64,000 nt of DNA from Thermoplasmata archaeon (GTDB lineage: Archaea; Thermoplasmatota; Thermoplasmata; Lutacidiplasmatales; UBA184), in assembly GCA_022750455.1 (NCBI GenBank), contig JAKIVR010000002.1, positions 1,270 to 65,269 of the forward strand, in the 5' to 3' direction. The notes beneath the pieces are model-generated. The model did not search any database and was not told where the DNA came from. It saw only the letters and a list, made by a program, of their open reading frames with translations. The first letter of the stretch is position 1. The number at the start of each line of letters is the position of its first letter. The position numbers and the translations under genes were made by a program. Shown here one piece after another: positions 3,452 through 48,550 of the stretch.

Positions 3452-4591
3452 ATGAAGTCCATCATCCAGGAAGCCATCGCGAAGCACGCCGAAAACCAAG
3501 CGCTGGTCGACGACAAGAAGCCGGACGGGCAGAATCCGGCGTACACCAGCGTCGACGATGCCGAGCTGGCGAAGTTGGCGGAGACGCTGAAGGTCAACAT
3601 CCGGATCGTCGGATGCGGCGGCGGCGGCTCCAACACGGTCAACCGGTGCGTCGACGAGGGGATCCAGGGCGCCGAGATGTGCGCCATCAACACCGACGCG
3701 AAGCACCTCCTGACCATCCACGCGCCCCGCAAGATCCTGATCGGTCGCCGGGCCACGAAGGGCCTAGGCGCCGGCGCTCGCCCCGAGGTCGGGGAGGAGG
3801 CCGCCCGCGAGAACGAAGAGGAGCTGCGCCAATTCGTTCAGGGCGCTCACATCGTCTTCATCACAGCGGGCATGGGCGGCGGAACCGGTACCGGCTCCGC
3901 GCACCTGGTCGCTCGTCTCGCCAAGGAAGCGGGCGCCCTCACGATGGGCGTCGTCACCATCCCGTTCTCCGCGGAAGGTGCCGTGCGCATGGAGCAGGCC
4001 CGGGACGGGCTCGAGCGCCTGCGCCGCGTCTGCGACACGACGATCGTCATCCAGAACGACAAGCTGTTGGAGCTCGTTCCCCGGATGCCGCTCGACGCCG
4101 CCTTCAAACTGGCCGACGCCGTCCTGATGACGGCGATCAAGGGCATCATCGAGATCGTGACGCGCCCGGGGCTCGTGAACTTGGACTACGCCGACATCCT
4201 GACCGTCATGAAGGACGGCGGGGTCGCCCTGATCGGGCTTGGCGAGAGCGAGAGCGCGACGGACCGCGTGACCGAAGCGGTCACCGAAGGTCTGACGTCC
4301 CCTCTGCTCGGCAACGTCGAGCTGAAGGACGCGACCGGCGCCTTGGTCCGCGTGATCGGCGGTCCGACAATGACCGTCTCGGAGGCCGAGAAGGCCGCCG
4401 CGCTCGTCGGGGCGAAGATCTCCAAGCGGGCCCGCATCATCTGGGGCTGCTCCGTCGAGAACTCTCCGGAGATGGAGAACACCATCAAGGTGCTCCTCAT
4501 CATCACGGGCGTGCGCGCGACCAGCCTCCTCGGTTCCAAGGGAGGCTACGCAGCCGGTGAGTCCGAGGAAGTCATCGACCTCGTCCGGTAG
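3452..4591 (+). CDS. ftsZ: cell division GTPase FtsZ (tubulin/FtsZ family)
   Basis: GCGGGGSNTVNRC and GMGGGTGTGSA tubulin-signature motifs. A gaggcaacaacaATG start context. 379 aa. Confidence 0.9.
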   Translation: MKSIIQEAIAKHAENQALVDDKKPDGQNPAYTSVDDAELAKLAETLKVNIRIVGCGGGGSNTVNRCVDEGIQGAEMCAINTDAKHLLTIHAPRKILIGRRATKGLGAGARPEVGEEAARENEEELRQFVQGAHIVFITAGMGGGTGTGSAHLVARLAKEAGALTMGVVTIPFSAEGAVRMEQARDGLERLRRVCDTTIVIQNDKLLELVPRMPLDAAFKLADAVLMTAIKGIIEIVTRPGLVNLDYADILTVMKDGGVALIGLGESESATDRVTEAVTEGLTSPLLGNVELKDATGALVRVIGGPTMTVSEAEKAAALVGAKISKRARIIWGCSVENSPEMENTIKVLLIITGVRATSLLGSKGGYAAGESEEVIDLVR

Positions 4592-36757: not shown

Positions 36758-37341
36758 CACGGGCTCCGGGGCACGAGGCGGGGGGCCGAACCGGTAAGAT
36801 CCACGAGAGTGGAAGGGACGCCCCCGGGCACGGGGCCCTCGATCACGTACTCGGCGACGGAGCGCGCGAGCTCCCCTTTCGCCGATCGAACGTCGGCCGT
36901 CGCCGGGGCGCCGTGGAGGTTCGCCGAGGTGCACGTGATCGGGCCCACCTGGCGCGCGAGCTCCCGGGCCACGGGATGGCCGGGGATCCGCAGTCCCAGA
37001 GTTCGCGCCGCACCGATCGGAGCGGCGATCGTCGAACGGGCGAACGCCGAGGGACGGACCAATACGGTGTACGCTCCGGGCAGCTTCGATCGGACGAACG
37101 CGCGGCCGGAGTCGGAGAGCTCCGCCAGCCGCTCGAGCTCCGCGATCGAGCTCACGGCGAGGGCGACCGGGGTCGTCTCGGGGCGGCGCTTGGCTCGGAA
37201 CACCCGGCGGAGAGCGGTCGAACGATCCGCTCGCGCTCCCAGGCCCCACAACGTGTCGGTCGGATAGACCACGAGACGCCCGGCTCGCAACGATCGGACC
37301 GCCGCCTCGAGGGAGGCGGACCCTCTAGACGAGCGAGGCAT
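36757..37341 (-). CDS. tsaC: L-threonylcarbamoyladenylate synthase (YrdC/Sua5 family)
   Basis: VVYPTDTLWGLG signature. Confidence 0.8.
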   Translation of the reverse strand: MPRSSRGSASLEAAVRSLRAGRLVVYPTDTLWGLGARADRSTALRRVFRAKRRPETTPVALAVSSIAELERLAELSDSGRAFVRSKLPGAYTVLVRPSAFARSTIAAPIGAARTLGLRIPGHPVARELARQVGPITCTSANLHGAPATADVRSAKGELARSVAEYVIEGPVPGGVPSTLVDLTGSAPRLVPRSP

Positions 37342-37783
37342 CGGTCCGCGACACGGCGACGTACTCCTCCGGCCGGAAGTAGAGCGCGAGCTCCCGCGCC
37401 GCCGACGCGGGGGCGTCGGAGGCGTGGATCAGGTTCGCGGTGATCGCCAGGGCGAGGTCGCCCCGGATCGTGCCGGGGGCCGCGGTCTGGGGATTGGTGG
37501 CCCCGACGAGAAGTCGGATGACCGCGATCGCCGAGCGCCCTTCCCAGGCCATCGCGAGCACCGGACCCGAGGTGATGTGTTCGACCAGGCCGGGGTAGAA
37601 CGGCTTGCCCTTGTGCTCGCCATAATGTTCGGCGGCGAGCGCCGGGCTCACGCTCAGCAGCTTCGCCGCCGCGAGCGTCAGCCCCTTCGCCTCGAGCCGC
37701 TGGATGATCTGTCCCACGAGCGCGCGCCGGACGCCATCGGGCTTCACCAAGACCAAGCTCCGCTCGACGCCCCCTTCGTTCAT
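37325..37783 (-). CDS. ndk: nucleoside diphosphate kinase
   Basis: NLIHASDA active-site His. 152 aa. Confidence 0.9.
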   Translation of the reverse strand: MNEGGVERSLVLVKPDGVRRALVGQIIQRLEAKGLTLAAAKLLSVSPALAAEHYGEHKGKPFYPGLVEHITSGPVLAMAWEGRSAIAVIRLLVGATNPQTAAPGTIRGDLALAITANLIHASDAPASAARELALYFRPEEYVAVSRTDASLV

Positions 37784-37863: not shown

Positions 37864-38244
37864 GTGCACCGGGGAATCGAACTGGACCTTCACCTGACCC
37901 CGGGTCTCCACAACGAGAGCTTCATCGCCGTCGCCCTCGGGAACCTGCTCGCCTTCCGCCTCCAGAAGGAGCGCGGGGAGCGGCTGGCGTGGCAGATCCT
38001 GCAGATCGAAGGCGGGAGCGACCATCACTATCGTCTCGTGCTCCGACACCCGGAGCGCGTGCTGGACGTCGGATTGCAGCACGACCTGCACCGCGATCTG
38101 GAGGAGCTGCGCCAGCGGACTTCGGAGCAGCTCCACCAGGAGCTCGAGGCGGCGAAGAGCGCCGGACTCGTTCCCGTGGGGCTCCGACACGTCACCGAAC
38201 TACCGGACCTCTGGAAGGACGATTTCTGGAACTGGATCGGCTGA
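37864..38244 (+). CDS. hypothetical protein
   Basis: ORF only. His/Glu/Leu-rich. No motif recognised. Confidence 0.2.
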   Translation: MHRGIELDLHLTPGLHNESFIAVALGNLLAFRLQKERGERLAWQILQIEGGSDHHYRLVLRHPERVLDVGLQHDLHRDLEELRQRTSEQLHQELEAAKSAGLVPVGLRHVTELPDLWKDDFWNWIG

Positions 38245-38280: not shown

Positions 38281-38799
38281 TCACACCGCCCTCGCATCGC
38301 ATTCGGTCCGCCACCGGCACCGGGCGCACTTCCCTGTCGAAGGGGTCGCCCGACCGTCGTACGGGCGCGCGACCTCCCGCCGGATCTCCGTCACCGCGGC
38401 GCGGGCGCCGGCGTCCCAGGCAACGAAGAACTCCCCTCCGTCCCCGTACCGCACGATCCCGTACGGGGGCGATCGCCCGGTCGTCTCCTCCACCAACAGA
38501 CAGTACGCGGCGACCTGGATCTGATGCGAGCGCCACGGTCCGCCGCGGGGGGTCGAGCGGCTCTTCCACTCCACCGGGATCCAGCTTCCGTCGGGAAGAC
38601 GTCGGATCTCGTCCGGTCGGCCCACGAGCCGCCACCGTTCGGAGACGAGCCGGGTCCCGGCGCGGCCGGGGAGGTCGACGTCCACGAGGTGCCCGTGCCG
38701 ACGGTCGGGGATCCAAGAGATCCAGAGCGCGAGCGCCCCGAGAAGGACGACGCCCGCGATCCCCGCGACGGCGAGAGCGATCTCGCCGACCGGGCTCAT
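38281..38799 (-). CDS. Cas4-like PD-(D/E)xK nuclease, C-terminal module (N-terminal TM helix; D, ExK, QxxxY motifs; CxxCx5C Fe-S cysteines)
   Basis: TM IALAVAGIAGVVLLGALALWISWI; VEWKSRS (ExK); HQIQVAAY (QxxxY); GKCARCRWRTEC. Confidence 0.55.
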   Translation of the reverse strand: MSPVGEIALAVAGIAGVVLLGALALWISWIPDRRHGHLVDVDLPGRAGTRLVSERWRLVGRPDEIRRLPDGSWIPVEWKSRSTPRGGPWRSHQIQVAAYCLLVEETTGRSPPYGIVRYGDGGEFFVAWDAGARAAVTEIRREVARPYDGRATPSTGKCARCRWRTECDARAV

Positions 38800-39077
38800 G
38801 CCCCGAGCGCAACGGCGAGCGCCCCGGCCATCACCAAGGCCGCGACCGCGATCGCCACGGCCACCCAGCGAGAGCTGGCCTCGGTGCGAAGCGCGGCGGT
38901 GAGGTGCTGGTGGTGCGCCATCGTGCCGTAGTCCTGGCGCGCGACGGATTCCGGATCCGGGTCGGAGGCGTGCCGGCCGGTGCGGTAGGCATAGGCGCGA
39001 GGACAGTACGCATACTCGGCGAGGTTCCCGACGGTCTGCCACCGGGGAGAAAGGGAGGATTGCGCGCGCGCTGCCAT
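38796..39077 (-). CDS. Cas4-like nuclease, N-terminal module (YCPR first-cysteine motif) ending in a TM helix
   Basis: LAEYAYCPRAYAY matches the Cas4/DUF83 N-terminal CPR(K)xW motif. C-terminal hydrophobic helix WVAVAIAVAALVMAGALAVAL. Stop overlaps the downstream ATG (ATGA). Confidence 0.5.
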   Translation of the reverse strand: MAARAQSSLSPRWQTVGNLAEYAYCPRAYAYRTGRHASDPDPESVARQDYGTMAHHQHLTAALRTEASSRWVAVAIAVAALVMAGALAVALGA

Positions 39078-39132
39078 GAGGGATTTGGACGGGTATCGGC
39101 GTTAAAGGCTTCCGCTTGGAGTGGAAGATGCT

Positions 39133-39537
39133 CTACGCGGTCGGGGGCGATGATGGCGCGGTCCCGGCGTCGGCGGCCGGCTTCGAACCCCCGCCCCGGG
39201 GCTTCTTCGGGGGCTTGGGAGCGGCGGGCGCCGGGGCGGCCGGGGTCTCCGCGACGCGCTCGGGTTTCGGTGCCGGGGCCGCCGGCGCCGGCTTCGGGGC
39301 CGGAGCGGCGCCGGGCGCCGCGGCCGCGCGCGCGGCGTTCGACGCCGTCTGGGCCCGGCGGAGGGCGTGCGCCCGGGTCCACTTCATTCGGTGGCCCACG
39401 CGTCCGAGCACGAGCTGCTGCTTGCGGCACGAGCTGGAGCAGAAGTGGAAGACGCTGCCGTCCTTCTTGACGAACATGAGCCCGGTGCCGGGCTCGATCT
39501 CGTCGGCGCAGAACGAACACTGGCGCTTGATCACCAT
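39133..39537 (-). CDS. rpl24e: 50S ribosomal protein L24e with ~70-aa Ala/Pro-rich C-terminal extension
   Basis: MVIKRQCSFCADEIEPGTGLMFVKKDGSVFHFCSSSCRK zinc-ribbon core, then AAAPGAAPAPKPAPAAPAPKP... Confidence 0.85.
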   Translation of the reverse strand: MVIKRQCSFCADEIEPGTGLMFVKKDGSVFHFCSSSCRKQQLVLGRVGHRMKWTRAHALRRAQTASNAARAAAAPGAAPAPKPAPAAPAPKPERVAETPAAPAPAAPKPPKKPRGGGSKPAADAGTAPSSPPTA

Positions 39538-39544
39538 GCGAACT

Positions 39545-39757
39545 TCACCGTACCGACAGTTTCCGCGCCTCGCGCGCGGTCTCGCGCAGAACCAGGACGT
39601 CGCCGATCCGTATCGGACCGGTGACGTTCCGGGTGATGATCTTGCCGCGGTCGCGTCCGGCCAGGATCCGTACCTTCACCTGCGTGGCCTCGCCGGCCAT
39701 CCCGGTCCGACCGATCAGCTCCACGACCTCCGCCGGGGAGCCCTTCTCTTCGGCCAT
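39545..39757 (-). CDS. rps28e: 30S ribosomal protein S28e
   Basis: 70 aa, full-length S28e similarity ([22 protein letters not shown]). Confidence 0.9.
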
Positions 39758-39782: not shown

Positions 39783-40154
39783 CTACTTCTTCAGGGTCTG
39801 GAACGCCAGGGCGAGTTCGTCGAGCAGCGCCTTCGCCTCGCCGGGTTCGACGATGGCGACGCTCGCCGCGGACTTGGAGAGTCCGACCGCCGCGCCGAGC
39901 CGCTGCTTCTTCCCGACATACAGGTACGGGATGCGCTTTTCTTCGCAGAGCATCGGAATGTGCACCAGGATCTCGACCGGGTCGACGTCCTCGGCCATGA
40001 CGACGAGCTTCGCCTCGGCGCGCTCGCTGGATTTCGTCACTTCATTGGTGCCGACGCGCACGCGGCCGGTCTCCCGGGCCACTTGCACGAGCTGGAGCGC
40101 CTTATCAGCGATATCGGCGGGGGTCTCGAACCGTACGTAAATCGGTCGCGCCAT
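39783..40154 (-). CDS. rpl7ae: 50S ribosomal protein L7Ae
   Basis: 123 aa, L7Ae/L30e fold ([25 protein letters not shown]). Confidence 0.9.
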
Positions 40155-48211: not shown

Positions 48212-48233
48212 CCGCCTCCCCGATGGAGCGCTT

Positions 48234-48550
48234 GCTAGGCTTGACCGGGGGGTTGGGCGTCCCCTTTTACACCGAAACCGTCCTCAGCGGGGGTGACAGG
48301 CAGGAGCGGCGTCCGAGAGAGAGTACCGTCTCGTTTGGTCTCGTCGAAGCTCTGTTCCATCGGGCCGCGGGTCTCGCGATGGACGCCCGGAGGGGCGTTC
48401 TAGCGGGTATTCATCACGGACATCGGGCGAGGTCCTGACGGGAGCAGCCTTACCGTGACCCGTCGACGCTGGTGGGGCGACGGGGCTGAGAGACTGGCGA
48501 GAACAACGGTGCCCTTCTTCGGCCGTCCACCCTGCTGGCCTAGCACGCCG
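48234..48550 (+). ncRNA. candidate signal recognition particle RNA (7S / SRP RNA), ~310 nt
   Basis: 5' GCUAGGC (48234-40) pairs with GCCUAGC (48538-44). Helix-6-like hairpin GACGCCC-GGAG-GGGCGUU. Helix-8-like GGUCCUGACGGGAGCAGCC resembling the conserved GGUCCGGAAGGAAGCAGCC. Lies in a 560-bp gene-free stretch. Confidence 0.5.

Follow-up and report, generated by a model that had tools for sequence, protein, structure and literature searches.

Known Cas4 proteins are single soluble chains of approximately 170–220 amino acids, and their structures (SSO0001, 4IC1; Pcal_0546, 4R5Q; type I-C Cas4, 8D3L; Cas4–Cas1, 7MI4) have in common a RecB-like fold, its nuclease motifs, and a 1+3 arrangement of cysteines. 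In Pcal_0546, the iron–sulfur (Fe–S) cluster is ligated by Cys64, Cys200, Cys203, and Cys209, and the metal site is formed by Asp123 and Glu136 and, as has been proposed, also by the conserved His94; the SSO0001 equivalents of these metal-site residues are His62, Asp99, and Glu113 (PMC4176176). The same Fe–S-stapled RecB nuclease fold is present in AddB, AdnAB, Dna2, and EXO5, which are soluble and mostly fused to helicases, and the characterized Cas4/Dna2/AddB/EXO5 members of this iron-staple group all act on DNA (PMC4176176). Archaea also possess solo-Cas4 proteins encoded away from CRISPR–cas loci (PMC5704561; M. mazei Solo-Cas4, PMC12501428), for which Hudaiberdiev et al. 2017 (PMC5704561) reported a vertical, order-consistent distribution and, in many Chloroflexi, a monophyletic group. 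Membrane insertion or splitting is not mentioned in that study, and a full-text literature search returned no paper describing a split, membrane-associated, or transmembrane (TM) Cas4. The stretch analyzed here, referred to as the window, comprises 64,000 nucleotides of a Thermoplasmata archaeon (contig JAKIVR010000002.1, positions 1,270 to 65,269, forward strand) and carries two coupled open reading frames (ORFs), ORF1 and ORF2, which very likely encode a two-subunit, cytoplasm-facing, membrane-tethered Cas4/iron-staple nuclease that is not linked to CRISPR and draws its active and Fe–S sites from both chains. Thus, whereas known Cas4 proteins consist of one soluble chain, there are two chains here, each with a TM helix, and a hydrophobic insert of approximately 60 residues separates motif I from motif II; in contrast to AddB, AdnAB, Dna2, and EXO5, no helicase is found in the protein or nearby.

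Both genes lie on the minus strand and are joined by an ATGA stop/start overlap (38796..38799) that places ORF2 in the −1 frame relative to ORF1. ORF1 (38796..39077; 93 amino acids) would provide the N-terminal subunit of the split nuclease, a cytoplasmic helical segment followed by a C-terminal TM helix, and ORF2 (38281..38799; 172 amino acids) the C-terminal subunit, in which an N-terminal TM helix precedes a RecB-like nuclease core and three Fe–S cysteines. ORF1 carries a YCPR motif (Y24-C25-P26-R27, preceded by NLAEYA), whose C25 (codon 39003..39005) is the predicted first Fe–S ligand, and a G-x-x-x-H motif (G51-T-M-A-H55), whose H55 (codon 38913..38915) is the histidine of RecB motif I and a predicted metal ligand of the active site. 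RecB motifs II and III (38563..38613), with D63 in GRPD (G60-R61-P62-D63) and E77-W-K79, are located on ORF2 and followed by S91-H92, a QhxxY motif (Q95...Y99; 38503..38517) conserved in the homologue alignment, and C158-x2-C161-x5-C167 (38299..38328), the three predicted C-terminal Fe–S ligands. Among 29 concatenated pairs, the invariant residues are C25, P26, R27, G51, and H55 in the ORF1 part and the D, ExK, Q..Y, and three cysteines in the ORF2 part; C25, G51, and H55 are also invariant among 37 ORF1 homologues, and the ORF2 residues among 37 ORF2 homologues. Directly after Y99, ORF2 has a family-specific cysteine, C100 (codon 38500–38502, in AYCLL), which is conserved with few exceptions in the membrane forms, whether split or not, and does not occur in the aligned segments of 4r5q and 4ic1.

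The RecB motifs I, II, III, and QhxxY of the Cas4 family are present only when both chains are taken jointly, and the four Cas4 cysteines, one N-terminal and a C-terminal CX2CX5C, are represented by C25 together with C158, C161, and C167, for which cluster binding is predicted. An earlier note, made from the letters of this DNA alone, had given both ORFs with the same ends and ATGA coupling, had listed the YCPR motif and terminal hydrophobic helix of ORF1 and, on ORF2, a TM helix followed by D, ExK, QxxxY, and CxxCx5C, and had read them as one complete Cas4-like nuclease broken by a two-helix hairpin and a stop/start overlap. All of these features were recovered and that reading is supported, with the addition that the motif-I histidine, H55, also resides on ORF1. 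As a check, the note had proposed a profile search, in which Pfam PDDEXK_1 (PF12705) matched each half and spanned the concatenation. ORF1 covered profile positions 4–43 (E-value 1.8e-3) and ORF2 positions 112–246 (E-value 2.9e-8), ORF2 passing the cut-off alone, while the concatenation covered positions 4–246 of 247 (E-value 1.4e-13; score 51.8 vs. a cut-off of 22), near-full coverage being reached only after joining ORF1 and ORF2. The TIGR00372 (NCBIfam cas4) and PADLOC Cas4 models gave the same pattern, with the two halves complementary.

The split layout is shared by a large number of relatives. A search with the concatenated sequence returned at least 331 homologue clusters, and the best 120 of the 331, from Thermoplasmata metagenome bins, are nearly all 166–181 amino acids long (exceptions, P0003 with 194 and P0099 with 154), an ORF2-like length which indicates that they are C-halves only. 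A single-sequence search with ORF1 found only two relatives, and a profile was needed for the rest, yielding at least 335 clusters of approximately 87 amino acids. Relatives occur at 586 loci or more in a scan of species-representative genomes, and hundreds of assemblies from JGI, NCBI, ENA, and Logan annotate the two halves as separate genes; since hundreds of homologue clusters are nearly all equally short, the ORF pair is not due to chance. Gene layout was parsed at 84 loci, which gave 66 split calls, one of them (L073) a false call of the N-half; thus, N-half and C-half are separate ORFs at 65 of the 84, always with the C-half in the −1 frame. The overlap measures 4 nucleotides at 32 loci, 19 at 13, 16 at nine, 22 at three, and 1 at two, and a few further loci have overlaps of 13 or 28 nucleotides or short gaps, so that one repeated sequencing error is impossible as their cause.

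Codon evidence leads to the same result. The GC content at codon positions 1/2/3 is 0.72/0.59/0.85 in ORF1 and 0.72/0.59/0.88 in ORF2, and high third-position GC (GC3) tracks the ORF1 frame to approximately 38800 and the ORF2 frame beyond; the ORF2 frame stays open upstream to 39042, but this extension has a non-coding pattern (0.89/0.73/0.57). A sibling contig (L087) with 88% nucleotide identity differs at 96 of 797 nucleotides, has no indels, and shares the junction, and at the codon level it shows 17 synonymous differences and 1 nonsynonymous difference in ORF1, and 51 and 16, respectively, in ORF2; both ORFs are under purifying selection, ORF1 being strongly constrained. Across the junction, no difference is seen in L088, another contig from a JGI metagenome. 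As to the two alternatives left by the earlier note, the real split gene is borne out by the same layout in 65 loci, the indel-free sibling, and the GC3 frame switch, and the sequencing frameshift is excluded by these and by the varied overlaps. A long-read bin (L062, ~3666–4350) has the N-half and both TM helices in one frame and a break after the second helix, which is probably an assembly indel error and not a third architecture.

A profile search against PDB sequences returned Cas4 proteins first (4r5q, 4ic1, 8d3l). The ORF1 part aligned to the N-terminal segment of Pcal_0546, with C25 on the cluster cysteine Cys64 and H55 on the His of GRILH (His94), and ORF2 motifs II and III aligned to those of the Cas4 structures, its CX2CX5C matching Cys200/203/209 of Pcal_0546. 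With C25 and H55 on ORF1 and the rest on ORF2, the catalytic site and the cluster site would, therefore, each be built from two polypeptides, and both halves would presumably be needed for the nuclease. Two other alignments were not used: a mixed alignment of free N- and C-halves, discarded for misplacing the N-halves on the AYCLL region of the C-halves, and a later MAFFT alignment, which kept register only with 12 C-halves or fewer and in which ORF1 still parted from its homologues after C25-P26.

When the concatenated sequence, an artificial fusion, was modeled with AlphaFold2, the model had a mean predicted local distance difference test score (pLDDT) of 81.4 and a predicted template modeling score of 0.74, with the core above 90 and residues 11–30 at 80–86. 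Its long helices, 54–90 (including TM helix 1) and 96–120 (TM helix 2), form a hairpin spanning residues 54–120, and its fold is Cas4-like: the top Foldseek match in the PDB is Cas4 8d3l (E-value 1e-6, target-normalized TM-score 0.59, 275 columns), followed by 4ic1 and 7mi4. The next matches, Dna2, AdnAB, ACE1, EXO5, and AddB, constitute the iron-staple nuclease group, with AddB, AdnAB, Dna2, and EXO5 at ranks 6–19.

TM segments were assigned from Kyte–Doolittle hydropathy, the 19-residue means reaching 2.67 in ORF1 and 2.64 in ORF2. TM helix 1 (ORF1 residues ~67–93; 38799..38879) is predicted to run N-in/C-out and TM helix 2 (ORF2 residues ~3–31; 38707..38793) N-out/C-in, with a basic PDRRHGH after it. 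The position of the ORF1 helix is conserved and its sequence is not, the N-terminal hydrophobic segment of ORF2 is kept in all homologues, and basic residues stand before TM helix 1 and after TM helix 2 in all of them; moreover, at most a few residues lie between these hydrophobic segments and the end of ORF1 or the start of ORF2. The two orientations combined give a hairpin with almost nothing exposed outside, and the simplest reading is that both soluble parts would be cytoplasmic and the termini at the junction just outside the cell. In the model, the motif-I helix is continuous with TM helix 1 and approximately 10 residues separate TM helix 2 from the first strand and, thus, the active site would lie close to the membrane surface.

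In the mechanism proposed from these data, ORF1 would give the N-terminal helices, the first Fe–S cysteine, and the motif-I histidine, and ORF2 would give D63 of motif II, E77-x-K79 of motif III, QhxxY, and CxxCx5C. Each subunit would contribute one TM helix to the hairpin, and the soluble parts would reassemble on the cytoplasmic face into the Cas4 fold, where both the metal site and the Fe–S cluster would bridge the two chains. ORF2 would probably be translated by coupling, through the ATGA overlap and, often in the relatives, a G-rich box upstream of its start. Physical assembly, cluster binding, topology, and activity of the pair are here deduced from sequence and model.

Several points weigh against this reading. 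The concatenation misses the curated Cas4 cut-offs (PF01930, 20.9 vs. 22.7; TIGR00372, 54.1 vs. 65), the topology derives from hydropathy and the positive-inside rule and not from a dedicated predictor, and the two-chain assembly is deduced from homology and from the model of an artificial fusion. Within that model, ORF1 residues 31–60, including H55, have a pLDDT of only ~55–59, because the alignment is shallow there. The Fe–S cluster is dispensable for cleavage in two Cas4 enzymes (PMC4176176) and, thus, may be only structural here. Lastly, the gene neighborhoods offer no consistent functional clue.

The split form is standard in a large clade of soil Thermoplasmata and also occurs in some Chloroflexota, and a membrane-anchored, two-polypeptide version, which the earlier note had called unusual, was not found in the literature but is common in nature. 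Outside the split clade, the nearest relatives are unsplit membrane-inserted Cas4-like proteins with 30–45% identity, the same insert site, and AYCLL and PPYG motifs; they differ in being single polypeptides with ~2, 4, or 8–9 TM segments and in having other neighborhoods, and they are annotated just as "CRISPR-associated protein Cas4" or "Dna2/Cas4 domain-containing protein". Those with ~2 segments measure 243–300 amino acids (Methanofollis formosanus WP_220682637.1, Methermicoccus shengliensis WP_052353351.1, and Poseidoniia proteins), those with ~4 approximately 330 amino acids (other Thermoplasmata), and those with ~8–9 segments 516–596 amino acids (Poseidoniia/Thermoplasmata proteins). 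A membrane-inserted grouping, which is proposed here and is not a curated family, can be defined by the insert between motifs I and II together with AYCLL(V/L)E and PP(Y/F)G, and the window pair falls within it as its split version with two helices.

Since canonical Cas4 is a single chain and the single-chain relatives have their hydrophobic insert at the same point, the parsimonious history is a fission that broke the outer loop of a two-helix insert, and the pair most likely arose from a single-chain ancestor that would have carried the TM hairpin between motifs I and II. The split Thermoplasmata forms constitute one clade in a rough neighbor-joining tree, and the Chloroflexota split forms stand apart from it in this tree, which lacks support values and was not relied on. 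At three Chloroflexota loci (L072, L077, and L079), the pair has FCRR or YCNR instead of YCPR. Two separate origins of the split, or a transfer of the pair from one domain to the other, may lie behind this distribution. Upstream of the Chloroflexota pairs lies a gene that seemed translin-like, an impression for which Pfam gave no support.

In the window, the pair lies beside ribosomal protein genes, as the earlier note had stated, with L24e (39133-39537), S28e (39545-39757), and L7Ae (39783-40154) upstream on the same strand and ndk (37325-37783), also on the minus strand, downstream; Sua5 is likewise among the nearby genes. All 70 close loci have L7Ae-S28e-L24e upstream and ndk-Sua5 downstream, where the contig reaches. 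At 60 related loci, a convergent class-I methyltransferase gene follows ORF2, and none is found in the whole window. In the window and its nearest sibling, the methyltransferase is replaced by a 126-amino-acid ORF (37864-38244, plus strand) convergent with ORF2, which has a coding GC pattern (0.78/0.35/0.85) and a DUF2004 match (30.7 bits vs. a cut-off of 27). Moreover, eight loci, including L001 (2368-3768) and L004 (2365-3762), have a 465-amino-acid protein with ~10 predicted TM segments encoded between L24e and the N-half; its gene overlaps that of the N-half by 4 nucleotides, it has no Pfam or PADLOC match, and it is a possible third membrane partner in this subclade.

Upstream of ORF1, an AT-rich TTTAA box (39102..39106, minus strand), 25–29 nucleotides from the ATG, is a candidate archaeal TATA element, and relatives have a conserved AATCGGTAAG or TTTGAA box ~25–33 nucleotides upstream. 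Besides the AT-rich box, TTCCACTCC is conserved ~45–50 nucleotides upstream of ORF1, the whole pattern occupying 39102-39125 (minus strand) in the window and the same position at related loci. This upstream pattern probably represents the promoter architecture of this high-GC lineage, and the AT-rich box suggests that the pair probably has a promoter to itself, from which the mRNA would be leaderless or nearly so; a sigma-70 promoter and terminator scan was uninformative for an archaeon. The neighboring L24e (134 amino acids) has a long Ala/Pro/Lys-rich C-terminal tail with an imperfect 27-nucleotide tandem repeat (39266-39320), and the L24e proteins of relatives are likewise extended (131–158 amino acids). 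At a distance from the pair, an archaeal signal recognition particle (SRP) RNA (48233-48545, plus strand; Rfam RF01857, 151.7 bits) is the sole Rfam family at the gathering threshold.

By analogy with its relatives, the pair likely cleaves single-stranded DNA or DNA ends in a metal-dependent manner near the inner membrane surface, and its role can be guessed to be DNA processing or surveillance at the membrane, or repair. An RNA substrate, with a role in translation or in tRNA or rRNA metabolism at the membrane, appears improbable but is the best placed of the alternatives, owing to the recurrence of translation and RNA-modification genes in the neighborhoods. Beyond the ribosomal proteins and Sua5 beside the split pair, the Methanofollis single-chain gene follows an RNase H gene, with TrmO also near, the Poseidoniia gene is next to NTPase_1, Trm1, RpoL, and TruD, the 9-TM form follows L15e, and in an Ardenticatenia bin the gene precedes TGT. 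However, archaeal housekeeping clusters are mosaics, in which adjacency is weak evidence, the characterized iron-staple relatives all act on DNA, and other lineages have a different context: the Methermicoccus gene is near XPB and Bax1, and at seven of seven loci (among them L074, 675-3404, and L078, 1573-3630) the gene directly before the 4-TM gene encodes a membrane-anchored protein with a Lamin-Tail Domain (LTD) and two PLD-like domains. The latter protein is large, has terminal hydrophobic anchors and sometimes also a PKD domain, and resembles a PLD-type nuclease of the cell surface; the two genes share a 4-nucleotide overlap in L074. DNA processing at the inner face of the membrane is, therefore, favored, both because the characterized relatives are all DNA nucleases and because a sister clade is tied to this apparent surface nuclease.

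A true CRISPR adaptation Cas4, acting in trans with a Cas1–Cas2 module elsewhere in the genome, seems slightly less probable still. The closest relatives in sequence and fold are CRISPR-associated Cas4 proteins, source annotations name both halves Cas4, and only 64 kb of the genome are covered by the window. Nevertheless, in contrast to CRISPR-associated Cas4, which is a single soluble polypeptide encoded with cas1/cas2 or an array, the pair consists of two polypeptides that are each predicted to have a TM helix, it scores under the curated cut-offs, and no cas genes or CRISPR arrays were found in the window or in ~90 related neighborhoods. No CRISPR-like array was detected in the 64-kb window by Tandem Repeats Finder, as the earlier note had also stated, and Rfam found only the SRP RNA; the PADLOC matches were limited to Cas4 and DruK-type nuclease domains, with no defense-system context. 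The position of the pair in the housekeeping cluster is fixed across the whole clade, a location outside CRISPR–cas loci and a mostly vertical pattern, with 70 close loci sharing the neighborhood, that agree with the vertically inherited solo-Cas4 (PMC5704561), one group of which belongs to the phylum where further split forms were found here. Furthermore, membrane tethering would seem ill-suited to a chromosomal Cas4–Cas1–Cas2 integrase complex. A nuclease without a link to CRISPR is the preferred reading.

It is very improbable that ORF2 is a self-sufficient, membrane-anchored nuclease and ORF1 a small membrane protein in its own right, for instance a regulator or a remnant, that would leave the fold incomplete. 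This would account for ORF2 passing the PDDEXK_1 cut-off alone and for three of six Chloroflexota loci at which no N-half was found, and the nearly invariant C100 can be imagined as the fourth ligand. However, the only invariant residues of ORF1 are the C-P-R of the Cas4 cluster motif and the motif-I G-x-x-x-H, ORF1 adjoins ORF2 in 65 loci and, from its 17 synonymous and 1 nonsynonymous differences, is strongly constrained, and, of the three Chloroflexota loci lacking an N-half, one is masked in its upstream sequence. Moreover, single-chain relatives in which the N-terminal cysteine is kept have C100 as well, which, thus, is not a replacement ligand.

Equally improbable is that ribosomes undergo a programmed −1 frameshift toward the end of ORF1, which would yield a single chain with a TM hairpin, like the unsplit relatives. 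ORF2 is in the −1 frame at every split locus, and in the window this frame is open upstream of the ORF2 start, but no slippery heptamer (X XXY YYZ) was found in the ORF1 frame within its last 60 nucleotides at 62 unique junctions. At these 62 loci, a separate start codon for ORF2 (ATG, GTG, or TTG) invariably lies at the ORF1 stop or close to it, preceded in 35 by a G-rich Shine–Dalgarno-like box, overlaps of 1 or 4 nucleotides are the usual arrangement for coupling, and a constant frame relation is equally expected from common descent with in-frame indels. That the pair is a sequencing or assembly frameshift or a recent pseudogene, and in truth one continuous or dead gene, is hardly credible, for although the ORFs jointly make one domain and the ORF2 frame stays open to 39042, the split recurs in 65 related loci with overlaps from 1 to 28 nucleotides or short gaps and in hundreds of assemblies from different sources, the sibling contig has mostly synonymous changes in each frame and no indel, and GC3 switches from one frame to the other, leaving the upstream extension non-coding.

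The two-subunit nuclease could be part of an undescribed and mostly vertical family of membrane-integrated Fe–S nucleases with 2–8 helices, present in Euryarchaeota and with Chloroflexota offshoots, that would keep the Cas4 fold against the inner membrane face, would be the cytoplasmic nuclease of DNA entry, uptake, or entry surveillance and, in one clade, would work with an extracellular, membrane-anchored PLD-type nuclease whose gene lies immediately upstream; taken as a whole, this broader proposal is speculative and rather unlikely, though better placed than any of the alternatives above. Solo-Cas4 is nearly universal in archaea, and a large branch bolted to the membrane narrows its possible site of action. 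The source annotations of the halves read "Cas4", "PD-(D/E)XK nuclease", or "hypothetical protein", and with such pipeline labels naive counts would credit genomes with CRISPR adaptation genes. The split form would be a natural two-chain iron-staple nuclease, with the cluster and the active site at the subunit interface, which would make it a useful test of the cluster's job. Moreover, the recurrent link to an apparent surface PLD-type nuclease in the sister clade may provide a testable lead on DNA handling across the archaeal envelope.

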